Numbered from the stretch's first letter, positions 37,256 through 58,921 are shown. The stretch: 64,000 nt of DNA from Bacillota bacterium (GCA_023444095.1 JAEZRP010000006.1:1-64000), one strand, 5' to 3'. Translations and numbers: made by a program. Notes: generated by a model not told the origin, from the sequence alone.

Positions 37256-40200
37256 TTACGGCATCACGGGATTCGTGAAGTCGATCGTCTCGTCGTCCGT
37301 CATGATGAGCTGCAGGGTGTCGAGCCCGACGTAGGGCTTTTCGGCAATGAGGTCGATCATCTCGAGCGGGACGAACGCCGCGTCTTCCACATACAGGCCG
37401 TTGATGTAGGTCTGCAGGTTCAGAGCCGCGATCATCGTCGCCTCGTCAAACGTGCCCTCGACAGCGCTGCCCTCGACATTCGGATCGAGCGAGAGCCAGC
37501 CCCACAGCACCAGCTTCTGCTGGAAGGCGGCGACGTGCTCGGCATCGGACTTCGCGTCGAGCGGCTGATCCCAGACGAGCTCGGTCGGCATGGGTTCGGC
37601 TGTCGGCTCCGCCGTGGGCTCCGCAGTCGGTTCCGCCGTGGGTTCCGCGGTCGGCTCCGCCGTAGGCTCGGGCGTCGGTTCGGCCTCGGGGCGCACGAGC
37701 GTCACGTAGGACATTTCTCCGTCCGCCTCGGTTCCGTTGATGGGAACCGCGTACACCACCACGTAGTAGGTTTCGCCTTCCGCGAAGTTGGCGTTCTTGA
37801 TGGAGATGCTCGTCTCGGTGGTGCCGGTCAGTTCATTGATCTTCTCCTGGTTGCCGTTCAGGAAGTAGATGTTGTAGCTTGCCACGTCGCCCGACGAGGA
37901 CCAGCTGATTGTGATATTGTCGCCTCCGACGAGATATGCGCTGCCGTCGAAGTCCGCGTAGCCGGAGACTTCGATCTCAGGCACGCCGACGGTGTACACG
38001 GGCTCGGCCGTGGGTTCGGCAGTCGGTTCCGTCGTAGGCTCGACAGTCGGCTCGGCGGTCGGTTCTGCCGTGGGTTCCTGGGTCGGTTCGTTGGTCGGCT
38101 CCGCAGTAGGCTCCGCGGTCGCCTGCTGGATTGCCGCTACCTTGACGATCGTTTCGGCATCGCCGGAGAGCGTATGCGCCACGATCTTCAGGCCGTAGAC
38201 GGCTTCCGCGCCGAGCGCGTCGGAGGCAAGGTTCATGGCCGTCTTGTCGGTGCCCTCGACGGACTTGACGACGTCGCCGTTCCCGTCGAGCAGGTACACG
38301 TCGTAGGTCGCTTCGCCGCCGGTGGACGTCCAGGAGATGAGCGCCGGCTCCGCGCCGATCATATACACGTCGCCTTCAAGTGTCGCGCCCTCGACCGTTA
38401 TCACAATCGTCGCGGGCTGGGCGGGCTCCTGGGTGGGTTCCACGGTCGGCTCGACGGTCGGTTCTTCCGTCGGTTCGACAGTCGGTTCCGCCGTGGGTTC
38501 TTGAGTCGGCTCGTTGGTCGGCTCCGCAGTAGGTTCCTCGGTCGCCTGCTGGATCGCCGCAACCTTGACCGTCTCTTCGGCGTCGCCGAAAGTCGTATGC
38601 GCCACGATCTTCACGCCGTATACTGCTTCCGTACCGAGCGCATTGGAGGCAAGGTTCATGGCCGTCTTGTCGGTGCCCTCGACGGACTTGACGACGTCGC
38701 CGTTCCCGTCGAGCAGGTACACGTCGTAGGTCGCTTCGCCGCCGGTGGACGTCCAGGAAATGTGCGCCGGCTCCGCGCCGATCATATACACGTCGCCTTC
38801 AAGTGTCGCGCCCTCGACCGTTATCACAATCGTCGCGGGTTCGACGGGCTCCTGGGTGGGTTCCTCTGTCGGCTCGGCAGTCGGTTCCGCCGTGATTTCG
38901 GCTGTGACCTCCGCCGTGGGTTCGGGCGTCGCGAGCGCGACGGGCGCGATGGAAATCGTTTCCTCCGCGTCGCCGGAAGCGGTGTGCGCCACAACCTTCA
39001 GGCCGTAGGAGTTGTTCTGCTCGAGGTCGGAGGCGTCGAGCTGCATCGTCGTGTAGCTGGTGTTTTCGGCCTGCTTGAGGACGTTCCCTTCGCCGTCGAG
39101 GAGGTACACGCTGTAGGTCGCCTCGCCGCCGGTCGACGTCCAGGAGAAGGTTGCCGGTTCGACGCCGATGTAGTAGACGTCGCCGTCCATCGCCGCGTTC
39201 TCAACCGTGATCTTGACGCTCGTCGGTTCGTTCGTCGGTTCTGCGGTCGGCTCGGTCGTCGGCTCGGGCGTGGGTTCGGGGGTCGCCTCGGGCTGGACAG
39301 CGGCCACGTAGATGACCTGATCGACGTTACCCGCCGGAGCGTGCGCTTCGATCATGAATCCGTAGACCTTTCCGGCCTCGAGGTCAGCCGCGCTCATGGA
39401 GAACACGGTTTCCGCGTAATTGTCTGACTGGTTCAAGATGTTCCCGTCGGCGTCCATGAGGTACAGGCTGTAGCCCGTAACCTCGCCCGTCGTCATCCAG
39501 CCGATGGTTGCGGGGGTCTCGCCGATGTACCACACGTCGTCGATGCGGTTGGCGTTTTCAACCGTCACGGAGAGGGTCACATCCTCCGCTTCCTCGCCCT
39601 CCGTCGGGGGCTCGGTGGGATCGGGCTCCTCCTCGGTCGCCATCAGCGCGACGCTGGCGGTCTTGCCCTCGGATTCGTTGCCGTCCTCGGGGTAAGCGAG
39701 GATCTGCAGGTAGTAGGTTTCATCCTCAGTCAGTTCGTCGGGCAAGATTTGGAGGCTGCCGGTTGGGATGTCCTCGTACGACATCAGCACGTTCCCGCCG
39801 CCGTCGATGACGTAGGCGTTGTAGAGCATCCCGGCCACGGCCTCCCAGTTGATGGTCGCGCCGCTTCCGCCGATGATATAGATGTTGCCGTTGATGATGA
39901 CGTCGCCCGAGATATTGATGATCGGGACGATGATCGTCGGGCCGGGCGTCACGGAAGGCGTGGGCGTCGGCTCAATCGTCGGAAGGACGATGGGCGGCTC
40001 GGGGGTCGGACTCGGCGTGGGCGTCGGCTCGACGCGCGCGGGAGTCATGATGGCGATTTCGGTATACTTCGCATCGTCCATCGTGCCGTTCACGGGCACC
40101 GCGAATACGGCGATGTTGTACCGCGATTCAGCGTCGAGCGCGGTCACATCCAGCTGCATGTTCGTGGCGTTGAGCTTGCCGGCCTGCAGGTTGTAGCCGT

Positions 40201-42346
40201 CCTCGTCCCTGATTTCGACGTAGTACTCCTTGACGCTGCCCTCAACCGTCCAGGAGATGGTGATCATGGTGTCCTCGACGTAGAAGACGCCGGGCGTAGG
40301 CTGGGTCATGACGTTGGATACCGTGATGACCGGGGCCGTGATCACAGCGGGTTCGGGTTTTTTCGGCGCATCCGGCGAGAACAGCAGCTTCTGCGTCTCG
40401 ACCGTCGCGACGCCCGTCACGTCGAGGCCCGCGACCTTCTGGAACTCCTTCAGCGCGTTCTGGGTGTACTTTCCAAAGTATCCGGTCGTGTTTCCCTTGA
40501 AGTAGCCGAGCTGCTTCAGGCGCTCCTGGAGGTCGAGCACGCGATCGTTCTCGTCGCCCCGGCGCAGGGTGATGTAGCCGCTGTACTCGGGCGCGTTGTT
40601 GGCAAACAGCTTCTGCTGGAGAAGCGCGCTCGCGACGCCCGACTGCACGACGCCGATCTCCTTCTGGAAGAGCTTCACGGCGGCCTTCGTGGCCGAGTTG
40701 TAGGAGTAACCGGGCTTGCCCTCAAGATAATATAGCTCCTTGAGTCGCTTGTTGAGCTGGAGTACGCGCCAGCCGCTGTCGCCCTGATTCATCAGGAAGT
40801 AGGAGCTGCTGGACTTGGCCTTCGAACTGTACAGCGCGCGCAGCGTCTCGGAATCGGCGATGCCCGTCTCGTCGAGTCCGTTCTCCGACTGGAAGAGGCT
40901 CAAGCCGTCGCGGGTGTAGGGGCCGTAGATGCCGTCCGCCGGATCGGCCATGTAGCCGAGCGCGCGCAGCCGGGTCTGCATCTCCTGAACGCGCAGACCG
41001 CGCGCCCAATAGGAGATCTTGCGATAAGGATCAAACCGGGGCGGGTTTCCGTCGATCAGGAGCTCCTGAAATCCCCTGTCGGCGATGCCCGTGACGGTCA
41101 ATCCGTTGAAGTCCTGAAAGAGCTTTACGGCGTAGCGCGTCTTCGGGCCGTAAATGCCGTCGACGCGGTCATTGAGATACCCCAGTTCGGTGAGCGCCTG
41201 CTGAAGCGCCTTGACGGCATCGCCGCGGCTCCCGTAGCTGAGCGTCGCATACTTGGCGACGGGCGTCAGAATGTCCTTCGTGGTCTGCTCCGTGGTAAGC
41301 TTTGCGCTCGCGAGGAGGCTGAGGGCGCTTGCCTTTTCTACGGAAGCGTCGTCGTCATCGTCGGCGAAATCAAACACGAGGATGTCCTGCGGCTCCTCCT
41401 CCGCCCGCGCGTAGACGTTGAGCTGGCCGCTCACGGCGCTCAGGAAGACGTCCGTCATGTTGTAGCTGTCGGGAATGGTGATCTGCGCGAACGGGGAGAT
41501 GGCCCCGGTCGCGTCGTCGATCGCGTATACGAGGCCCGCGTCGTCCATGACGAGCGCGGTCGCATAGCTGGCGGTAACGCTCACGGGCTCCGCGTTCGGC
41601 AGCGCGATGTTCTGCCAGGAGAGCGTCTTGGGCGCGTACTGCATGAGCTGGCGCGCGCCGTCGACGTCGCGGATGTAGTAAAGATATCCGTTGATGCCCG
41701 AAAACTGATCGATGTCGGTCGCGATGAGCTGTTGGACGCGCTGAGCGGGATCGTCAAGGTAGAGCGCCCCGTCGCCCGTCAGGACGAGGTCTGCGCTTCC
41801 GAAGAGCGCGCGCTGTTCCCCGATCGCGCCGGAGAACGCCTCAACGGTCTGGAGCACGGGGTCGTAGACCATCGCGCCCGCCTCCGATTCAAAGCCGATC
41901 ACGAGGCCGTAGTTCGACGCCTGAAGGTATGAGACCGTCTCCTCGGAGGAATAGATCTCGCTCTTCGCGCCGGAGAACGCGATGAAATCGACGGCGGTGG
42001 GATCGGCCGCGGGGACATAGTAAACGCCGGCGCCGCCGAAACCGTTCGCCATCCTGACGCCCTCCACGAGCGTCGATTCCGCGTGGGTAACGATATTGAC
42101 GGCCTTGACATCATAGACGTCCTGTGCGGCCGTCTCGGAAAGAAACACGACGCGGCTCGCGTCGATCGAGACGAGGTCGTATGCGTCGGTCGCGTTGACG
42201 CGGCCCTCGTACCCGGTGAGCATAATGCCGCCGCTCGAGTCCAGATACGCCGATATGCGATCGTTCTGTACCGCGACGTCCGCATGCGCGACAAGCGATA
42301 CGCACATCAGCGCCGCAAACAGGGCGGCAATGAGATATTTCCTCAT
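37256..42346 (-). CDS. Giant secreted cell-surface protein (~1696 aa): signal peptide, N-terminal domain, 4x peptidoglycan-binding (PG_binding_1-like) domains, >=6 Ig-like repeats separated by (P-E/T-x-T) linkers, C-terminal PG-binding-like domain
   Basis: Signal peptide MRKYLIAALFAALMCVSLVAHA. Four GxxGxxVxxLQxxLxxLGY...DGIYGPxT..AVK.FQ repeats. Repeated ~100-aa modules (ITVEGATLEGDVYMIGAEPAHISWTSTGGEATYDVYLLDG...) are flanked by PEPTAEPT... linkers. The start is at MRKYL with an aaggagga RBS. Confidence 0.8.
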   Translation of the reverse strand: MRKYLIAALFAALMCVSLVAHADVAVQNDRISAYLDSSGGIMLTGYEGRVNATDAYDLVSIDASRVVFLSETAAQDVYDVKAVNIVTHAESTLVEGVRMANGFGGAGVYYVPAADPTAVDFIAFSGAKSEIYSSEETVSYLQASNYGLVIGFESEAGAMVYDPVLQTVEAFSGAIGEQRALFGSADLVLTGDGALYLDDPAQRVQQLIATDIDQFSGINGYLYYIRDVDGARQLMQYAPKTLSWQNIALPNAEPVSVTASYATALVMDDAGLVYAIDDATGAISPFAQITIPDSYNMTDVFLSAVSGQLNVYARAEEEPQDILVFDFADDDDDASVEKASALSLLASAKLTTEQTTKDILTPVAKYATLSYGSRGDAVKALQQALTELGYLNDRVDGIYGPKTRYAVKLFQDFNGLTVTGIADRGFQELLIDGNPPRFDPYRKISYWARGLRVQEMQTRLRALGYMADPADGIYGPYTRDGLSLFQSENGLDETGIADSETLRALYSSKAKSSSSYFLMNQGDSGWRVLQLNKRLKELYYLEGKPGYSYNSATKAAVKLFQKEIGVVQSGVASALLQQKLFANNAPEYSGYITLRRGDENDRVLDLQERLKQLGYFKGNTTGYFGKYTQNALKEFQKVAGLDVTGVATVETQKLLFSPDAPKKPEPAVITAPVITVSNVMTQPTPGVFYVEDTMITISWTVEGSVKEYYVEIRDEDGYNLQAGKLNATNMQLDVTALDAESRYNIAVFAVPVNGTMDDAKYTEIAIMTPARVEPTPTPSPTPEPPIVLPTIEPTPTPSVTPGPTIIVPIINISGDVIINGNIYIIGGSGATINWEAVAGMLYNAYVIDGGGNVLMSYEDIPTGSLQILPDELTEDETYYLQILAYPEDGNESEGKTASVALMATEEEPDPTEPPTEGEEAEDVTLSVTVENANRIDDVWYIGETPATIGWMTTGEVTGYSLYLMDADGNILNQSDNYAETVFSMSAADLEAGKVYGFMIEAHAPAGNVDQVIYVAAVQPEATPEPTPEPTTEPTAEPTNEPTSVKITVENAAMDGDVYYIGVEPATFSWTSTGGEATYSVYLLDGEGNVLKQAENTSYTTMQLDASDLEQNNSYGLKVVAHTASGDAEETISIAPVALATPEPTAEVTAEITAEPTAEPTEEPTQEPVEPATIVITVEGATLEGDVYMIGAEPAHISWTSTGGEATYDVYLLDGNGDVVKSVEGTDKTAMNLASNALGTEAVYGVKIVAHTTFGDAEETVKVAAIQQATEEPTAEPTNEPTQEPTAEPTVEPTEEPTVEPTVEPTQEPAQPATIVITVEGATLEGDVYMIGAEPALISWTSTGGEATYDVYLLDGNGDVVKSVEGTDKTAMNLASDALGAEAVYGLKIVAHTLSGDAETIVKVAAIQQATAEPTAEPTNEPTQEPTAEPTAEPTVEPTTEPTAEPTAEPVYTVGVPEIEVSGYADFDGSAYLVGGDNITISWSSSGDVASYNIYFLNGNQEKINELTGTTETSISIKNANFAEGETYYVVVYAVPINGTEADGEMSYVTLVRPEAEPTPEPTAEPTAEPTAEPTAEPTAEPTAEPMPTELVWDQPLDAKSDAEHVAAFQQKLVLWGWLSLDPNVEGSAVEGTFDEATMIAALNLQTYINGLYVEDAAFVPLEMIDLIAEKPYVGLDTLQLIMTDDETIDFTNPVMP
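38010..38855. repeat. Two near-identical ~423-bp tandem direct repeats inside the giant gene, encoding duplicate Ig-like module plus PT-linker units; more diverged copies extend roughly 37600-39700
   Basis: The DNA at ~38283-38420 and ~38706-38843 is almost identical. The spurious plus-strand ORFs 38322..38504 and 38745..39008 share the N-terminus MDVQEM.AGSAPIIYTSPSSVAPSTVITIVAG. Confidence 0.75.
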
Positions 42347-42520
42347 AACCGGTTCCTCCTTCATGGGTTATCTGCGTTTTAGACGCACCTCGAGCCACTT
42401 AGTTCCAAATCGGGCGAAAAATGGACTCGGTGTGTGATCGAATGATGAAACGATTTAATCCTGCGTTCGATTCCAATATGCGGAAAAATGTGCTATCATA
42501 CGTACATCGAACAGGTGTTC

Positions 42521-52415: not shown

Positions 52416-52739
52416 TTAAAGATTCTTATCGACAAACGCCTTCAGTGTCTGCTGGGGCACCGCCCCGATCAGGCGGTCCTTTTCGACGCCGTCCTTGAAG
52501 ATGACGATGGTAGGGATGGACGAAACGCCCATGGAAATCGCGGCATCGGTCTCGTCGTCAATGTTAAGCTTTCCGACCGCGAGCTTGCCTTCGTACTCCT
52601 CGGCGATCCTGTCGACGACCGGACTCATCATGCGGCACGGGCCGCACCAGCTTGCCCAGAAGTCCACGAGCAGGGTTCCTTGCGCCTGAAGGCTCTCCTT
52701 CGACAAATCCGACGATTTAAGTGTCTTGATCTCCGCCAT
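52416..52739 (-). CDS. trxA: Thioredoxin
   Basis: The WCGPC active site is present. The start is at MAEIKTL with a gcggagga RBS. Confidence 0.85.
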   Translation of the reverse strand: MAEIKTLKSSDLSKESLQAQGTLLVDFWASWCGPCRMMSPVVDRIAEEYEGKLAVGKLNIDDETDAAISMGVSSIPTIVIFKDGVEKDRLIGAVPQQTLKAFVDKNL

Positions 52740-53145
52740 AATTTCCTCCGCTTTCCCGGCACGCGCGCGCCTTGGGCGCGTACTTGCCGCTTGCTTTGAT
52801 ATGTCTGTCATACATTCTGACCGCGAGGAGCCCGAGCGCGAGCGCCCCGATGCCCGCCAGCGCCTGCAGATAGTCCACGTCCGTCAACGCGCGAGCGATA
52901 AAAAGGCCTGCGAAAAACGCGGCGATGGGAACGCCATAGGCGATCAGCGAGGCGCGCGAAAAGCTCGCGTCGTCGAGCTCAAGTTCGACCGGCTGACCTT
53001 CCTCATAGCTGCCCTTGGGAAGTTCCACGTAAACGGTCTCCCGCCTTCCGAATTCGCACGCACGGCAGTTTCCGCACGCTTCCGCGCGCCGGACCTCCGC
53101 CATGAGCCTTCCCTCGCGCCTGACCACAGTCGCCATTTGTTTCAT
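52717..53145 (-). CDS. RseC/MucC-family protein (SoxR-reducing-system-like positive regulator, membrane)
   Basis: An N-terminal Cys cluster (EACGNCRACEFG) and two C-terminal TMs. Its 3' end overlaps the trxA start by ~23 nt. Confidence 0.55.
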   Translation of the reverse strand: MKQMATVVRREGRLMAEVRRAEACGNCRACEFGRRETVYVELPKGSYEEGQPVELELDDASFSRASLIAYGVPIAAFFAGLFIARALTDVDYLQALAGIGALALGLLAVRMYDRHIKASGKYAPKARACRESGGNYGGDQDT

Positions 53146-53196
53146 TTGCCTCACGCTCCGCGTGTATTATAACCGGGCGCGCCTTTTTCTAAACCA

Positions 53197-54288
53197 TCAG
53201 AGCGAGACGGACGGGCACGTCTCGGACGCGAGATCGAGCATCCGGACGGGCCGTTCGGTTTCGCCGCTTCGGAGCATGCCGGTCATCACGTCGAGCGCGT
53301 GGCCGGTCAGCTTCCAGCTCGTAACGAAGTCCCCGTCGCCCAGATCGAACGCCTCCGCCATTTTGGAAAGGCCGAGCGCGCGGCTGTTCTCCTTGTAGGG
53401 AAACATGAGGGGCATTTCGCGCGTCGCGCCGTCCTCGGGAAGGTAGAGCTTCACGGGGCCGCCAAACGTGTTCGGGTCGGGGACCGTGAGCGTGCCCTTT
53501 TCGCCGTAGATCTCGATGCAGGGAAGCGTCGCCTTCAGCGTCTCGAAGGACATGACCATGCTCGCCGTCGCGCCCGATATAAAGCGCAGTGTGCCCGCCA
53601 CGTAGGTCGGCGTATCGACGGAGATCACGAGCCCCTTCTTCTCCTTGCAGCTCGCGACGCGCGTTTCGAACGACTTCTGCGTCATGGCGAACAGGCTCTC
53701 CACCGGGCCGAGCAGGTGGATGAGCGCCGTCGTATAGTACGGCCCCATGTCGAGCATCGGACCCGCGCCGGGCTTGTAGAAGAACTCCGGATCGGGGTGC
53801 CAGGTCTCGACGCCGTGGCTCATCATGAACGCCGTCGCAGCGAGCGGACGACCGATGAAGCCCGCGTCGATGATGCGCTTGCAGGTCTGAATGCCCGCGC
53901 CGAGAAAGGTGTCCGGCGCGCCGCCGAGCATGAGGTTTTTCTCGCGCGCGAGCCTGATCAGCTCGATTCCCTCTTCGATCGTGCCCGCGAGCGGCTTCTC
54001 GGAATAAACGTTCTTTCCCGCAAGGAGCGCGGCCTTTGTGACTTCATAGTGCTGGTAGGCGCGCGTGATGTTGAGGACAATGTCCACGTCCGGATCCGCG
54101 AACGCCTCGTGCATGTCCCGGTAGATCTTCGGGATCTCGGGATACTTCTCCTTGGCCGCGCGCGCCCGTTCCGGGATGAGGTCGCAGACGCCCGCGATCT
54201 CGAGGTTGTCAAACGTGCCGGTGATGTTCTTCAGGTAGATTCCGCTGATGTCGCCCACGCCGATGAACGCGATCCTCGCCATTTCCAT
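53197..54288 (-). CDS. Gfo/Idh/MocA-family NAD(P)-dependent oxidoreductase
   Basis: An N-terminal Rossmann fold (IAFIGVGDISGIYL) and an EKPLA motif. Confidence 0.8.
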   Translation of the reverse strand: MEMARIAFIGVGDISGIYLKNITGTFDNLEIAGVCDLIPERARAAKEKYPEIPKIYRDMHEAFADPDVDIVLNITRAYQHYEVTKAALLAGKNVYSEKPLAGTIEEGIELIRLAREKNLMLGGAPDTFLGAGIQTCKRIIDAGFIGRPLAATAFMMSHGVETWHPDPEFFYKPGAGPMLDMGPYYTTALIHLLGPVESLFAMTQKSFETRVASCKEKKGLVISVDTPTYVAGTLRFISGATASMVMSFETLKATLPCIEIYGEKGTLTVPDPNTFGGPVKLYLPEDGATREMPLMFPYKENSRALGLSKMAEAFDLGDGDFVTSWKLTGHALDVMTGMLRSGETERPVRMLDLASETCPSVSL

Positions 54289-54303
54289 TCCCCTCCGGAA
54301 TTT

Positions 54304-57288
54304 TTATTGATCCGAAATCGACGTCGGGGGATTGCAGTAGCCGCAGTCGCCGAATCCGTGCTCGAGCGCGTACTGGAGCGTCACGGCGGTGCCATTTTTC
54401 ATGCCCGTGTCCTCGCACTTGGACGAGGTATGGTAAAGATACGAGCTCGAATCGCCCGACAGATCGACATAGACCGTGGTGTCTCCCGGCGCGGAGCTCT
54501 CTTCGCCCTCATCGCCGCCCTCGTCTCCCCCGTTGCCCGTTCCTGTGACGCAAATCGGGCAGGGTTTGAGGCCGTAGCCGAGCGCCTCCGCGAGCGTGCC
54601 GGATACGGCGCCGGAGCCGGCGCACGCGGCGTCGTAGTGATACGTCGTCGACCCGGAAACCGCGTACACCTTCTTTGCCGCGGCAGCGGCGCAGTCCGGG
54701 CAGGCGGTCAGACTGTAGTTGAGCGCGGTCTCGAGCGTCACGTACTTCGCGCCCGTCATGCCCCCGCAGTTCGACTTGGTATGGAAGTATTTGCCCGTGG
54801 CCGTCACGTACACCTTCATGCCGGACGTGCCGGAGGTAAACCTGCCGGAATTCGTGGGCGTTTCACCGGTCCCCGTGCCCGTCACACAGTTGGGGCAGGG
54901 CTTGAAGCCGTAGGCGAGCGCCTGGTCGAGCGTACCCTTCGAAGCGGAACTCCCCGCGCAGCTGGACGAATAGTGATAATACTTTCCACCCTTTGTCGCG
55001 TAGACCGTCTTGTCGGCGGAGGCGGCGCAAGCCGGGCAGGCGCTCTTGCCGTAATTGAGCGCCGTCTCCAGCGCAATCTTGGTCGCCGTACCCGTGACGT
55101 TCTTGCACGTCGCCTTTGTGTGGTAATACTTGCCCACAACGGTCGCGTACACGTCGATGCCGGATGTGCCGGACTCGTATGTCTTCGAGGAAGTCGGCGT
55201 GGTGCCGTCGGAAGTCGCGCTCCAGCAGACCGGGCACTTCTTCAGCCCGTGGACGAGCGCCTCGGCGAGCGTTCCCTTGACCGCGTTCGTCATGCCGGAG
55301 CAGGTTGCGGTCTTGTGGTAATAGGCATTGCCTTTCTGCGCGTACACGCTCTCGTTCGCGCTCGCGGCGCACACCGGGCATGCGGTCTTGCCGTCGTCGA
55401 TCGCCTGCTCGAGGAGCACCTTGGTCGCACCCTCGTCGATCTGGGAACAGCCGGTTTTGGTGTGATAATACTTCCCATTTTCAGTGGCGTACACATACAC
55501 GCCGGAGTAGCCGCTGTTGCCGTCGTCCGACGAGCCCGCACCGTCGCCGGTTCCGCCCGTGCCGTCTCCGGTTCCGCCTGTGCCATCGCCACCGCCTGCG
55601 CTCCAGCACTTGGGACAGGCCGTGAAGCCGTATGCCAATGCCTGCGCGAGCGTGGCGTCCTTCGCGTCCGTCATGCCCGAGCATGTCGCATAGGAGTGGT
55701 AATACTTTCCGCCCTCGCTGACGTAGACCTTCCGGGCGGCGGACGTCGCACAGATCGGGCAGGCGGCGCGTCCATCCTTCAGCATGGACAAAAGCGTCAC
55801 CTTTTCCGCCCCGGTCATGCTGGAGCAGGTGGAGTTGGTGTGATAATACTTGCCGCTCGAGGTCGCGTAGACGTAGACCGCGTTGTCAGTCGATTCCTCG
55901 CTGTTCGAGTAGAAATCGTCCTTCACGCACACGGGGCACTTCTTCTTGCCGAGAACGAGCGCCGCCGACAGGGTGATGTTCTTCGCGTTCTTCATGCCCG
56001 AGCAGGTCGGGTCGGTGTGATAGTATGTTCCGGGCTCGGTCGCATAGACCTTCTTGTTCGCACCCGCGGCGCAGGTTGGGCAGCCCGACTTTCCGCTCTG
56101 CAGCGCCGCGAGCAGCGTTACCTTCTTTGCGCCCGACATGCCGGAGCAGTTGCTCTTGGTATGGAAATACGTGCCGTTTGATGTCATGTAGACGTACACG
56201 CCGCTCTTGTCGTTCTTGATGCTCGCGAGATACTTTTCGCTCGCGGACTTTTCGCTGCCCTCGGAACCCTCGGACGAGGATCCGGTCGACGTCCCGCCCG
56301 CGCAAACGGGGCAGGGGGTCTTTCCCTCCGCCTCGGCCTCGGACTTCGTATAGGAAATGGCGTTCTTCATGCCCTGGCAGAACTTGTCGGTGTGGTACCA
56401 CTTGCCGTCCGCCGTGCCGTAATACACCGTGTCGTCGACCGCGCCGATGCAGACCGGGCAGGAGGTCTGATTGCGGTTGCGCGCCGCCGCGACGGTCATC
56501 GCCGTGATGGAAACGCCGGTCTCGATGTTCGAGCAGTTGGGATCGCTGTGGTAGTAGAGTCCGGTCTGCGGGCTGTAAACAAGCGTTTCGTCCGTCCCCA
56601 CGTCCCCCGACGTGGTGTCGCCGAGGTTCGCGAGGGGGGTCGGCGAGGGCGAAACGCCCGGCTCGAGCGTTTCGCTCGCACCGAGCTCACCCGTCGGCGC
56701 TGCGGAGGGCTCCTCTGTGGGCGCAGCGGTCGGCGCAGTCGTCACAAGGGTCATCTGGGGCGGCGTCGAGGTGTCGCTCCAACCGCCGAAAAGATTCGAA
56801 AAGATGAGAATCAGAAGCACGATGAACCAGACCGCGGCCACAGCCGACAGTCCGGCGCGCACCTTCAGGTCGTAGCGGTTCAGCCGCCAGAGCAGATAGA
56901 TGCCCAGCGGCGGAAGGACCGCGAGCAGCGCGAGCACCACCCACGCGTTGTTTTCTATGTATTCCATGACGGGGCCGGCCGACGTACGCGGCTCGCCTTC
57001 GCGATAATAGCCGTCCTCGTCCTCGTAATATCCGTCCTGTGCGCCCTCGGGCTCATATCCCTCGTCAGGCGCGTAATCGTCCGCGCGGTAATCGGAATCG
57101 TCCGCGCGAGTATCGCCGTACGGATCTTCCCCGTAAGGATATCCGGAGGCATCGTACGCCTCGCGCCCCTCGCCCGCCGAATCGTCCTTTCCAAACGCGA
57201 TTCGCTTGATGTCGCCCTCGCCCCAGCGATAGGCGAAGCCGTGCCTGGAAAGATTGAACTTCAGTTTTCCTATTTTATGCGTTGCCAT
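54304..57288 (-). CDS. Membrane protein (~994 aa) with acidic N-terminus, 2 TM helices, Pro/Thr linker and 13 tandem ~40-55-aa His/Cys3 zinc-ribbon-like repeats (YYHx4-5C-x19-24-CPxC)
   Basis: Repeats such as GKYYHTKSNCSGMSGAKKVTLLAALQSGKSGCPTC, GTYYHTDPTCSGMKNAKNITLSAALVLGKKKCPVC and KYYHSYATCSGMTDAKDATLAQALAYGFTACPKC recur 13 times. The positively charged inter-TM loop (RLNRYDLKVR) suggests the repeats face outward. Confidence 0.75.
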   Translation of the reverse strand: MATHKIGKLKFNLSRHGFAYRWGEGDIKRIAFGKDDSAGEGREAYDASGYPYGEDPYGDTRADDSDYRADDYAPDEGYEPEGAQDGYYEDEDGYYREGEPRTSAGPVMEYIENNAWVVLALLAVLPPLGIYLLWRLNRYDLKVRAGLSAVAAVWFIVLLILIFSNLFGGWSDTSTPPQMTLVTTAPTAAPTEEPSAAPTGELGASETLEPGVSPSPTPLANLGDTTSGDVGTDETLVYSPQTGLYYHSDPNCSNIETGVSITAMTVAAARNRNQTSCPVCIGAVDDTVYYGTADGKWYHTDKFCQGMKNAISYTKSEAEAEGKTPCPVCAGGTSTGSSSEGSEGSEKSASEKYLASIKNDKSGVYVYMTSNGTYFHTKSNCSGMSGAKKVTLLAALQSGKSGCPTCAAGANKKVYATEPGTYYHTDPTCSGMKNAKNITLSAALVLGKKKCPVCVKDDFYSNSEESTDNAVYVYATSSGKYYHTNSTCSSMTGAEKVTLLSMLKDGRAACPICATSAARKVYVSEGGKYYHSYATCSGMTDAKDATLAQALAYGFTACPKCWSAGGGDGTGGTGDGTGGTGDGAGSSDDGNSGYSGVYVYATENGKYYHTKTGCSQIDEGATKVLLEQAIDDGKTACPVCAASANESVYAQKGNAYYHKTATCSGMTNAVKGTLAEALVHGLKKCPVCWSATSDGTTPTSSKTYESGTSGIDVYATVVGKYYHTKATCKNVTGTATKIALETALNYGKSACPACAASADKTVYATKGGKYYHYSSSCAGSSASKGTLDQALAYGFKPCPNCVTGTGTGETPTNSGRFTSGTSGMKVYVTATGKYFHTKSNCGGMTGAKYVTLETALNYSLTACPDCAAAAAKKVYAVSGSTTYHYDAACAGSGAVSGTLAEALGYGLKPCPICVTGTGNGGDEGGDEGEESSAPGDTTVYVDLSGDSSSYLYHTSSKCEDTGMKNGTAVTLQYALEHGFGDCGYCNPPTSISDQ
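54330..56590. repeat. Imperfect tandem DNA repeats (~120-170 bp units) encoding the His/Cys3 modules
   Basis: This follows directly from the periodic protein repeats; the units are diverged, not identical. Confidence 0.6.
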
Positions 57289-57524
57289 TCAATTACACCT
57301 CATCGGAGACGCGTCGTACGCTCTTGATCGCCGTCCGGGCATGCGATACACATATTAAGTTTACATCATAAATAGCGCGCAGTCAATCGCCCAATGGCGA
57401 AATAATGTGCCCGAAATGAGAAGAATCGGTCAGTATTGTCACTTTGCCGTCATAATCATTCCCCTGTATACTACTAATCTTTGAACTTTGTTTCAAATGT
57501 TTGAAAAAAGGTTTCATTTCTTCA

Positions 57525-57554
57525 TTGCTTTGGATGGGCGGGATATGATATAAT
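57525..57554 (+). promoter_or_regulatory. Sigma-70 promoter for the capA-like gene (-35 TTGCTT, 18-nt spacer, -10 TATAAT)
   Basis: TTGCTTtggatgggcgggatatgaTATAAT lies ~47 nt upstream of the ATG. Confidence 0.5.
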
Positions 57555-57601
57555 CCCTCTATACATATACGGCTTACGGGGCCTTTTCGGAGGTGCATTC
57601 C

Positions 57602-58921
57602 ATGAAAATGGGCAAGGGCGGAATCCATATCGGGCAATATCGCGTCACACCACTGGGAATCGCGGTGTTCGGCGCTATTCTTCTTGCGCTCGCCATCATC
57701 GCGGTCATTCTCGTCATGAATCAAATTTCCACCGATCCCACGATCGCGGGACCCGGCCCGGTGGACGGCGGACCAATGGACGGCGAAACCGTCATCACAA
57801 CCCATACTCCCACCCCGGCGCCGACGCCCGAGGTAACCAGCGAGCCGACGCCCGAGCCGGAACCCACGCCCGCCTCCGCGCGCATCCGCTTCCTCGGCGA
57901 GATCTCGGCGGACGATAACGTGCTCTCCGCGGCGCTTCAGGAGGACGGGAGCTATGACTTCTCCTCCATGTTCAGCATGATCGCGGGAGCGGCCAGCGAC
58001 GCGGATTACACGGTCGCGGACGTCGAGGGTTCCATGGGCGACATGGGCGAGGGTTACAGCGGGAAGACCCAGTATCACACACCCGACTCGATCATCGGAA
58101 ACCTCCGGGATGCGGGCGTCGACATGCTCGCCCTCGCGAACGACCACGCGCTCGACGTGTTCTTCGAGGGCCTGCTCGACACGATTGAAAACTGTAAGGC
58201 CGCAGACATGGCCTACGCGGGCGCCGCGGCGACGCAGGAGGAAAAGGATACGCCGAACATCGTCGACATCAACGGCATCAACGTCTGCTTCCTCAATTAT
58301 ACGACCACGCTCAACTCCAACGAAAAGGCGACCAGCGAGGACGCCGTCAAGTACGGCGTGAACCTCGCCTCCCAGTCAGACGCCAAGGCGGACATCGAGG
58401 CGGCGCGCGCCGCCGGTGCGGATGTGATCGTGGCGATCATGAGCTGGGGCGACGACGGAGAATCGAAGATATCAAGCGTGCAGACAAAGGTTGCGAAAGT
58501 GCTCGTGAACGCGGGCGTCGACGTGATCGTCGGCTACGGTCCGCGCGTGATCCAGCCCGTCTACTGGCTGGAGGCAAAGGATGACGAAGGAAACGTGACC
58601 CACAAAACGCTCTGCGCCACCTCGCTCGGTACCTTCCTTTCCGATTCCAACGAGAAGAATCGGGACTTCGGCACGATCTTCGAGTTCACGATTCGGGAGC
58701 AGGAAGACGGCGGCTTCACGATCGAGAGCCCCGTGAGCATTCCCACCTACGTGTGGCGCGCGGCGAACGGCGACAAGACCGACTACCGCGTGCTCGCCTG
58801 CGGCGAGTGGCTCGAGGAACAGCCCGAGGGCATGTCCGACGAGAACTACGCGCGGATGCTCGAGATCTGGAATAACATCGGCGGGATCCTGACGGACGCG
58901 ACGACCGTTGAAGCAAACTGA
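57602..58921 (+). CDS. CapA-family protein (PGA-synthesis CapA-like metallophosphatase fold) with N-terminal TM and Pro/Thr linker
   Basis: ...DMLALANDHALD... is the CapA/metallophosphatase motif. There is a TM near the N-terminus. The start is at MKMGKGG with a cggaggtg RBS. Confidence 0.7.
   Translation: MKMGKGGIHIGQYRVTPLGIAVFGAILLALAIIAVILVMNQISTDPTIAGPGPVDGGPMDGETVITTHTPTPAPTPEVTSEPTPEPEPTPASARIRFLGEISADDNVLSAALQEDGSYDFSSMFSMIAGAASDADYTVADVEGSMGDMGEGYSGKTQYHTPDSIIGNLRDAGVDMLALANDHALDVFFEGLLDTIENCKAADMAYAGAAATQEEKDTPNIVDINGINVCFLNYTTTLNSNEKATSEDAVKYGVNLASQSDAKADIEAARAAGADVIVAIMSWGDDGESKISSVQTKVAKVLVNAGVDVIVGYGPRVIQPVYWLEAKDDEGNVTHKTLCATSLGTFLSDSNEKNRDFGTIFEFTIREQEDGGFTIESPVSIPTYVWRAANGDKTDYRVLACGEWLEEQPEGMSDENYARMLEIWNNIGGILTDATTVEAN

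Follow-up and report, generated by a model that had tools for sequence, protein, structure and literature searches.

Background

RsrA and ChrR are zinc-binding anti-sigma (ZAS) factors and provide the precedent for switching through a zinc-thiolate site, while the choline-binding, CWB2, SLH, GW and LysM repeats form the cell-wall-binding repeat arrays of Gram-positive surface proteins. A third described system is the N-terminal zinc domain of Ada (PF02805; PDB 1ADN/1EYF, 1U8B, 1WPK), a small strand-plus-helix domain in which four ligands hold a single metal. In this work we describe a protein that shares features with each of these. It is encoded in a 64,000-nt stretch of a Bacillota bacterium (GCA_023444095.1 JAEZRP010000006.1:1-64000), the whole of which is called the window below and whose host, a gut anaerobe, was assigned to the order Christensenellales. 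The protein carries 13 tandem copies of a short module with one His and three Cys, and its gene is divergent from that of a CapA-like enzyme. An earlier reading of the DNA, made without database searches (the sequence-only reading), had described a membrane protein of about 990 amino acids; the open reading frame (ORF) has 994.

Ada and the module share the ligand spacing L1-x3/4-L2-x20-26-C-x2-C and the helix motif A..AG..(P)C..C(.P). However, the first ligand of Ada is the methyl-accepting Cys38 whereas that of the module is His, and the module has neither the N-terminal helix of Ada nor an AraC or methyltransferase partner domain. E. coli Ada has a single N-terminal copy, whereas the module, predicted to be extracytoplasmic, comes in tandem arrays of 3-18. 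ZAS factors likewise have a His/Cys zinc site in a protein controlling an extracytoplasmic function (ECF) sigma factor, and relatives of our protein are found directly after ECF sigma genes. The ZAS motif H-x3-C-x2-C, however, is part of a cytoplasmic sigma-binding helical domain, whereas the modules would lie across the membrane, have another predicted fold and are repeated; the 13-module protein of the window, unlike ZAS factors, has no adjacent sigma gene. The cell-wall-binding repeats are likewise small tandem modules on the C-termini of secreted enzymes or on membrane-anchored proteins, and the basic net charge of the 13-module family is a further likeness to such surface-binding arrays. 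They have no sequence or fold relationship to the modules, which are predicted to be metal-dependent, and they are variable and homogenised whereas the 13-module array is fixed at 13 with each position conserved. MslH and CapA are relatives of the partner gene and not of the module array. MslH is a PGA_cap relative, a peptide epimerase whose metal-dependent fold is calcineurin-like (PMC10406935). Compared with CapA/PgsA, the partner has a single transmembrane (TM) helix and a Pro/Thr linker, and is predicted to face outward, and no pgsB or pgsC was seen beside it.

Results

Thirteen modules with one His and three Cys

The protein contains exactly 13 modules of about 46 residues each with the pattern [YF]-H-x4-C-x20-24-C-x-x-C, the number that the sequence-only reading had given. 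All of its Cys (39/39) and 13 of its 17 His fall within the 13 motifs, the module His being residues 247, 299, 376, 424, 483, 531, 609, 658, 723, 772, 836, 884 and 953. In the alignment of the 13 units only the columns H, C, C and C are invariant, and the consensus is ..VYAT..GKYYHT...CSGM..A...TL..AL..G...CP.C. The H/C/C/C pattern of the consensus proposed earlier is thereby retained, whereas its spacing A-x5-[TL]-L has to be corrected to A-x3-T-L. A six-frame translation of the 64 kb gave one chance match to the same regular expression elsewhere in the window. The modules are laid out as six tight pairs, taken to be rigid (2-3 residues within a pair), followed by a divergent thirteenth module, and linkers of 13-32 residues composed of Gly, Ser, Thr and Asp separate the pairs. 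The tail of the last module (see Table 1) is conserved among homologues.

The ligand positions were tallied in an unbiased hidden Markov model (HMM) census, which took in 2,559 modules from 266 proteins. Ligand 1 is His in 2,546 modules, the others being gaps. Ligand 2 is Cys in 2,401, His in 105 and Asp in 27 (His or Asp in about 5%), and the first and second Cys of the CxxC are present in 2,557 and 2,549 modules, respectively. No substitute Cys was found in 130 of the 132 modules having His or Asp as ligand 2. The four positions (H, C/H/D, C, C) admit metal-ligand residues only, as in a generic metal mini-domain of the zinc ribbon or treble clef kind. Since the second position admits only Cys, His or Asp, it resembles a metal ligand and not a disulfide partner, and the odd number of Cys per module (three) also suggests a metal site rather than disulfides.

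An AlphaFold model of the module 5-6 pair, calculated from a 70-sequence alignment of pairs, had a predicted local distance difference test (pLDDT) value of 94.7 and a predicted template modelling score of 0.84. Such a prediction had been proposed as a check by the sequence-only reading. The predicted fold runs from two strands over a short turn to a third strand, a helix and a last strand, and its best matches in the PDB, though weak, are to the Ada N-terminal zinc domain (including 1u8b). Judging from the conservation pattern, it is strongly supported that each module would hold one metal ion, with His as the first ligand, Cys (alternatively His or Asp) as the second and the two Cys of the CxxC as the others. 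Zn2+ is the most likely metal if Ada is taken as the model. The earlier term zinc-ribbon-like is carried by the census as regards the His/Cys3 metal-site pattern, zinc itself being a prediction by analogy.

Array outside the cytoplasmic membrane

The charge distribution around the two hydrophobic segments was averaged over 142 relatives having the same anchor. The 15 residues before segment 1 contain 0.75 Lys/Arg and 4.0 Asp/Glu, the 13-residue loop between the segments 4.3 and 1.0, and the 15 residues after the second segment (TM2) 0.46 and 1.5. By the positive-inside rule, these counts place the loop in the cytoplasm and the array outside, as had been argued before from the loop of the window protein, and the relatives with signal peptides and with anti-sigma architecture described below agree. 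That a signal-anchor helix and a Pro/Thr linker would hold the array outside the cytoplasmic membrane is strongly supported by these sequence features.

We also calculated an AlphaFold2 model of the whole protein from a 29-sequence family alignment. The thirteen modules (residues 235-988) are folded confidently and TM2 is a continuous helix (141-167). Segment 1, in contrast to TM2, consists of two helices (115-124 and 126-136) broken at P126-P127, and its invariant residues W116, L122, P126-P127-x-G129 and L133-W134 make up the symmetric pattern W-x5-L-x3-P-P-x-G-x3-L-W. One relative (P0168) has basic stretches at both ends of segment 1, RPRRRRK and RRK, and another (P0255) starts directly at the basic loop and TM2. 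Because of these two relatives and the symmetric pattern we favour a re-entrant hairpin for segment 1, and we infer that the N-terminal beta domain and the acidic Tyr-rich tail are cytoplasmic. The claim of two TM helices is retained as two hydrophobic segments, perhaps a hairpin plus one TM helix.

At the N-terminus, residues 4-30 form four strands (pLDDT 77-85) and the motif MATHKIGKLKFNLSK.G.A.RWGDGEI.R is conserved throughout the family. The DUF4236 model (PF14020) gave 13.2 bits (E=0.13) on the window N-terminus, below its cutoff of 27 bits, and sub-threshold matches in 5 of the 29 family N-termini (best E 0.003), and is a lead only. The acidic Tyr/Asp-rich region and the Pro/Thr/Ser linker described by the sequence-only reading are both present in the sequence and have pLDDT below 50, the model being disordered at residues 34-104 and 168-227. 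In the 142 relatives the stretch before segment 1 is 85-223 residues long, with on average 54 Asp/Glu, 13 Lys/Arg and 22 Tyr; in the window protein the model has a short helix at residues 106-113. The length of the acidic tail varies widely among orthologues, in which a DDGY or ADDGY periodicity is common.

Secreted and putative anti-sigma relatives

The architectures of the top 150 profile hits were surveyed. One hit with a signal peptide (P0158, 803 residues) has a LytR_cpsA_psr domain and six C-terminal modules, another (P0241) has WG_beta_rep and BspA-type LRR_5 domains behind its signal peptide, and a third (P0249) has a signal peptide and an fn3 domain. In these proteins, which belong to other Clostridia, the modules form the C-terminal part and are found behind signal peptides alongside known extracellular domains.

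A large further group is single-pass, with a basic N-terminus of about 40 residues, a single TM helix near residues 40-65 and then 3-18 modules. Five members from four N-terminal sequence classes were tested (P0145, P0160, P0140, P0164, P0251), and all five are encoded directly downstream of an ECF sigma gene. The paired sigma factors have 157-173 residues with Sigma70_r2 and r4_2 domains, and their genes overlap the module gene or leave a one-base gap. From this position immediately downstream of an ECF sigma gene, the single-pass relatives look like anti-sigma factors in the standard arrangement, which would place the N-terminus, binding the sigma factor, in the cytoplasm and the modules on the outer side. 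A search with one anti-sigma-type relative gave no homologue attributed to a cultured organism, and the sole match with a named source is a metagenome-assembled genome (MAG). The five operons (L084:751-4265, L085:278-3350, L086:4514-8792, L087:2-3096 and L088:2531-4893) lie on metagenome contigs of uncultured Clostridia. The window protein does not have this arrangement: its neighbours are the PGA_cap gene and a GFO/IDH/MocA oxidoreductase gene, and no sigma gene is adjacent.

Conserved CapA-like partner

The sequence-only reading had noted a capA-like gene divergent from the array gene across an AT-rich region. Its product matches PGA_cap with 170.6 bits (E=6e-50, positions 2-254 of 255), above the cutoff of 27, and the spacer has 43% GC compared to 61% for the window. 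The mechanically called start is GTG 57593; GGAGGTG (57589-57595) precedes ATG 57602 (MKMGKGG...), which is likely the true start. The partner homologue in one related locus (L001) is 64% identical.

Conservation of this neighbour, suggested earlier as a check, was then counted. In 64 of 83 loci the array gene has a PGA_cap homologue upstream of it, on the opposite strand. The 19 remaining loci include 11 with under 1.3 kb of upstream DNA, which gives 64 of about 72 (about 89%) among loci with enough of it; the last eight are either the relatives that diverge most or second copies within a genome. Conservation of the further neighbours (GFO oxidoreductase, RseC, thioredoxin, RNase J) does not extend beyond the five closest loci, so the pairing is not simple synteny. 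We consider it strongly supported by this gene order that the 13-module gene would be genetically coupled to a CapA-like ecto-enzyme, predicted to face outward. A PgsBCA/CapBCA system is not indicated by the neighbourhood: no pgsB/capB or pgsC/capC was seen beside the partner among ORFs of at least 80 residues within about 5 kb on either side, nor in the three related loci L001-L003, although no search aimed at them was made. No lasso-peptide genes were seen next to the partner in the window neighbourhood, and its match to the MslH model (E=8e-10) is far below cutoff.

Conservation of the 13-module family

Searching with the whole protein gave at least 246 homologues with 40-76% identity and E down to 0. 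All of them are unannotated; a source name, where there is one, is that of a MAG with the label Clostridia, Clostridiales or Christensenellales. When a single genome was scanned for each species, 99 relatives were obtained, from which 80 loci were kept. Pullichristensenella, Faecivicinus and one isolate, 'Bacillota bacterium Meth-B3' (L064), are among them; nearly all are gut, rumen or digester MAGs with the same three labels. The distribution, another check suggested earlier, thus covers at least 80 species-level genomes, nearly all of them MAGs.

Exactly 13 modules are present in 118 of 119 homologues, and modules at the same position in orthologues are 50-61% identical compared to 36-40% for different positions. 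The constant count and the same-position similarity indicate that the array is ancient and of fixed length, with each position separately constrained. Averaged over 122 orthologues, modules 3-12 have a net charge of +2.5 to +3.5 each and modules 1, 2 and 13 are about neutral, whereas the modules of other architectures average -0.9.

Relation to Ada and DUF6233

In Pfam and NCBIfam no model scored above cutoff for the whole protein or for single modules, the latter being a search that the sequence-only reading had suggested. No literature was found on Ada-like extracellular zinc domains or on DUF6233, which agrees with the earlier statement that no characterised family has this feature. A sequence-profile search of the PDB with the module returned only chance CxxC matches, such as RING fingers and P5C dehydrogenase. 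The name 'sunset domain', considered for the module, had no NCBIfam match and no literature and was dropped; sub-threshold matches of relatives to DUF2849, Rieske_4, zf-tcix and similar models were taken as CxxC noise. The module profile (A2, 64 sequences), searched against 1.84 billion cluster representatives at 50% identity, matched 7,926 proteins at E<=1e-3; with the threshold at E<=1e-10 there were 840, and with E<=1e-30 there were 193.

The whole protein reached 13.4 bits (E=0.08) on Ada_Zn_binding (PF02805), below the cutoff of 23, and single window modules did not match it even at E<=10. The 26.1 bits of one orthologue (P0021) are a sum of partial matches to profile positions 43-63. In HHalign, profile A2 was aligned to the Ada profile A7 over 19 columns (helix and CxxC) with 48% probability, and the module profile to E. 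coli Ada alone over 17 columns with 51% probability; full-length profile-to-profile homology with PF02805 was not obtained. The matches to Ada_Zn_binding, those of P0021 and of the arrays described below, are likewise confined to the C-terminal helix and CxxC. The Ada family alignment shows C38, C42, C69 and C72 without variation, a four-Cys set that the module, with His as its first ligand and no nucleophilic first Cys, lacks. The Ada-like spacing and the different architecture pointed out by the sequence-only reading are both confirmed, while the link to Ada itself is weak (17-19 columns). By analogy, the module would work like an Ada-type metal site. It probably shares the Ada fold and is best described as a new family within an Ada/DUF6233-like group.

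Three proteins (P0230, P0246, P0266) match the module profile at E=1e-47 to 1e-38, DUF6233 (PF19746) at E=2e-18 to 6e-11 and Ada_Zn_binding at E=1e-14 to 4e-10. Together with P0238 and P0262 they are actinobacterial-looking (taxonomy unchecked), have 7-10 related modules of the form VVDG.P.YH..GC... and hit both Ada_Zn_binding and DUF6233. DUF6233-matching proteins and the module share the motif ..YH..C....A...G...C..C. However, the window modules have no DUF6233 match even at E<=10, and the DUF6233-matching relatives have no signal peptide or a topology with the array in the cytoplasm. In P0238 and P0262 the arrays follow two TM helices and then a basic stretch (LVRARV) and look cytoplasmic. 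There are hints that the module is extracellular only in organisms of anoxic habitats. Small Ada-like metal sites are a known fold class. New with respect to the libraries and the searchable literature are the module family, its His/Cys3 ligand set and its extracytoplasmic use, and likewise its occurrence as the outer domain in putative ECF anti-sigma factors and the conserved pair of 13-module protein and CapA-like enzyme.

Discussion

Taking up the earlier hint of a surface-polymer or metal-related role, for which the capA-like neighbour is conserved, we favour, at about even confidence, a metal-stabilised surface binding scaffold that works with the CapA-like enzyme as a cell-envelope protein of Christensenellales. 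The signal-anchor and Pro/Thr linker would hold the 13-module array outside the cytoplasmic membrane as a multivalent surface scaffold, whose ten basic central modules (about +3 each) may bind an anionic envelope polymer or a partner. The divergently transcribed CapA/PgsA-like metalloenzyme may make, modify or anchor that polymer, and the cytoplasmic N-terminal domain with its acidic tail could be the connection to the inside. Binding is preferred over pure sensing because the module is found as a C-terminal appendage on secreted enzymes and because both the charge and the partner are conserved.

Several points weigh against this explanation. The ion in the modules could possibly be Fe2+ or another one instead of zinc, and the convergence of the four ligands on one site is itself a prediction. 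No pgsB or pgsC was seen, although no search aimed at them was made, and the one biochemically characterised PGA_cap relative in the literature consulted is a peptide epimerase (PMC10406935), so the partner may have another chemistry. With two true TM helices, the acidic N-terminus (110 residues) would come to lie outside too. The basic charge belongs to the 13-module orthologous group and is no general property of the module. Finally, a fixed copy number with position-specific conservation is unusual for avidity binding to a repeating polymer; both are easier to reconcile with several partners, a ruler or a defined scaffold.

The first alternative to this binding scaffold, possible but on balance doubtful, is an extracytoplasmic redox or metal sensor in which oxidants or metal depletion or excess would strip the metal from a zinc-thiolate switch and unfold the modules. 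In the anti-sigma relatives this could lead to proteolysis and release of the sigma factor and, with the same limited plausibility, the 13-module protein might signal to its N-terminal domain or to the CapA-like partner. The module is the outer part of ECF anti-sigma factors in 5/5 tested cases, its thiolate-rich metal site is strictly conserved, and ZAS factors are a general precedent. The hosts of the extracellular form, which we take to be strict anaerobes, come from gut, rumen and digester samples, while the actinobacterial-looking relatives (again of unchecked taxonomy) appear to keep their arrays cytoplasmic. However, a sensor does not explain the C-terminal arrays on secreted LytR_cpsA_psr, fn3 and LRR proteins, nor why the number is fixed at 13 and each position is conserved on its own, nor the conserved basic charge or the CapA-like partner, and no sigma factor gene adjoins the window gene. 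A bolder form of the idea, which we hold to be speculative and rather unlikely, is that the module is a new class of extracytoplasmic sensor possible only in reducing habitats, a zinc-thiolate switch for oxidants or metal status that would act as an 'outside-out ZAS' on ECF sigma factors in Clostridia, and the 13-module version of which, in Christensenellales, would couple the state of the envelope to the CapA-like enzyme and the cytoplasmic acidic Tyr-rich tail.

We regard it as improbable that the array is a surface metal store or scavenger whose 13 sites buffer or capture Zn2+ (or Fe2+) for uptake or detoxification. Although 13 conserved sites per chain would be displayed outside and the partner's enzyme fold is a metal-dependent one (PMC10406935), the buried His/Cys3 sites in a well-folded domain (pLDDT 94.7) look structural and slow-exchanging, no metal transporter gene is conserved nearby, and the uses in anti-sigma sensors and as an enzyme appendage favour a binding or sensing domain.

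Metal-free repeats stabilised by disulfides, with an incidental His, would be in line with the general observation that extracellular Cys-rich repeats are usually disulfide-bonded in aerobes, but gut, rumen and digester samples are the source of the present hosts. An odd number of Cys per module, a His kept in 2,546 of 2,559 modules, a second ligand exchanged only for His or Asp, which are incapable of disulfides, and best fold matches to a zinc domain make this explanation very improbable.

Least credible of all is a cytoplasmic Ada-like zinc-finger array binding nucleic acid, with two TM helices and the N- and C-terminus inside, or an ORF that is not a real gene: two hydrophobic segments would indeed leave the two ends of the protein on one side of the membrane, the Ada domain binds DNA in the cytoplasm (PDB 1u8b) and the actinobacterial-looking relatives seem cytoplasmic, but the positive-inside bias of the loop, the relatives with signal peptides or anti-sigma architecture and the Pro/Thr linker after TM2, typical of wall-spanning regions, stand against such an array, and the codon composition and hundreds of homologues reported in the next section against a spurious ORF.

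The module is a domain of about 7,900 protein clusters (50% identity) for which there is no Pfam or NCBIfam model, solved structure or literature, and its definition would allow annotation of thousands of 'hypothetical proteins'. It would be an unusual thiolate-rich metal site outside the cytoplasmic membrane, plausible mainly in anaerobes, and a whole set of sigma/anti-sigma pairs of the ECF type in gut and rumen Clostridia may owe their outer sensor domain to it. As a gut lineage, Christensenellales are abundant, associated with health and poorly cultured, and in them the 13-module protein and the CapA-like enzyme form a conserved, putative two-gene envelope unit. A conserved and strongly patterned surface protein of this kind would be a handle on the envelope biology of the lineage and a candidate antigen or marker.

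Gene, strand and other features of the window

The GC content at third codon positions (GC3) of the 13-module gene is 0.817, compared to 0.83-0.88 in neighbouring genes, and a Shine-Dalgarno-like GAGGTG precedes its ATG. The sequence-only reading had allowed for the gene being disrupted or antisense to a real one, namely the long plus-strand ORF 53299..56181. With this GC3 and hundreds of homologues on the minus strand, neither is the case. The plus-strand ORF (960 residues) has a GC content of 0.84 at first (GC1) and 0.52 at third codon positions and 17% Arg, and is antisense to the GFO/IDH/MocA oxidoreductase gene as well as to the array gene. Because of the GC1 and GC3 values, the Arg content and the overlap with the well-supported GFO gene, we rejected it as a shadow ORF such as coding DNA of high GC3 typically has.

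We also rejected an artefact of assembly or of repeats, since the modules are not repeated at the DNA level. A tandem repeat of 21 bp (2.7 copies, 55534..55590), the sole DNA-level repeat of the array gene, encodes the GDGTGGT repeats of the Gly/Asp/Thr linker that joins module pair 3 to pair 4. A mobile-element origin is unsupported because PLSDB contained no matching plasmid and only two weak phage matches were found. The positions of the features can be seen in Table 1.

Table 1 Features of the 13-module gene and its divergent partner. Positions are those of the window; residue numbers are those of the 13-module protein.
Feature	Position	Strand	Remarks
13-module protein gene	54304..57288	-	ORF of 994 aa; GC3 0.817; homologues; Shine-Dalgarno-like GAGGTG
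Small beta domain, conserved N-terminal	57190..57288	-	aa 1-33; motif MATHKIGKLKFNLS..G.A.RWG.G.I.R; weakly DUF4236-like
Acidic Asp/Glu/Tyr-rich disordered region	56974..57189	-	aa 34-105; pLDDT below 50
Hydrophobic segment 1	56881..56949	-	aa 114-136; kinked TM helix or re-entrant hairpin
Basic loop (RLNRYDLKVR) and TM2 signal-anchor	56788..56880	-	aa 137-167
Pro/Thr/Ser/Ala-rich disordered linker	56587..56787	-	aa 168-234; pLDDT below 50
Module 1	56440..56586	-	aa 235-283; subtype with a long insert; roughly neutral in net charge
Module 2	56293..56430	-	aa 287-332; pairs with module 1
Module 3	56062..56199	-	aa 364-409; basic
Module 4	55918..56055	-	aa 412-457; pairs with module 3
Module 5	55741..55878	-	aa 471-516; modelled jointly with module 6
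Module 6	55597..55734	-	aa 519-564; modelled jointly with module 5
Module 7	55360..55500	-	aa 597-643
Module 8	55216..55353	-	aa 646-691
Module 9	55018..55158	-	aa 711-757
Module 10	54877..55011	-	aa 760-804; ligand 2 is Asp in some orthologues
Module 11	54682..54819	-	aa 824-869
Module 12	54541..54675	-	aa 872-916; ligand 2 is His in some orthologues
Module 13	54325..54468	-	aa 941-988; distinct terminal subtype, ends C-x-[YF]-C-N-P-P-T-S-[IV]
Divergent intergenic region	57289..57601		313 bp; promoter-like hexamers on both strands
PGA_cap (CapA/PgsA-like) partner	57593..58921	+	one TM helix, Pro/Thr linker; Pfam PF09587

Module-like sequences are encoded by two phages on gut-derived contigs, MT835924.1:5897-6175 (32% identity, E=1e-8) and PP511792.1:25972-26109 (39% identity, E=5e-4). 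The genes around the locus encode the oxidoreductase, RseC, thioredoxin, RNase J, MazG-like, GNAT, DUF1292 and Lon proteins, and the RseC-thioredoxin-RNase J block is conserved in the closest relatives only. Within 52416..53154 on the minus strand, the mechanically called RseC/MucC-family ORF (52717..53154) overlaps the thioredoxin ORF (52416..52811) by 95 nt; the thioredoxin start probably lies further downstream than called. At 37256..42364 on the same strand, 12 kb from the array gene, a 1,702-residue ORF with four PG_binding_1 domains, one fn3 domain and PT repeats (Pfam E=3e-61) encodes a putative, very large peptidoglycan-associated surface protein.

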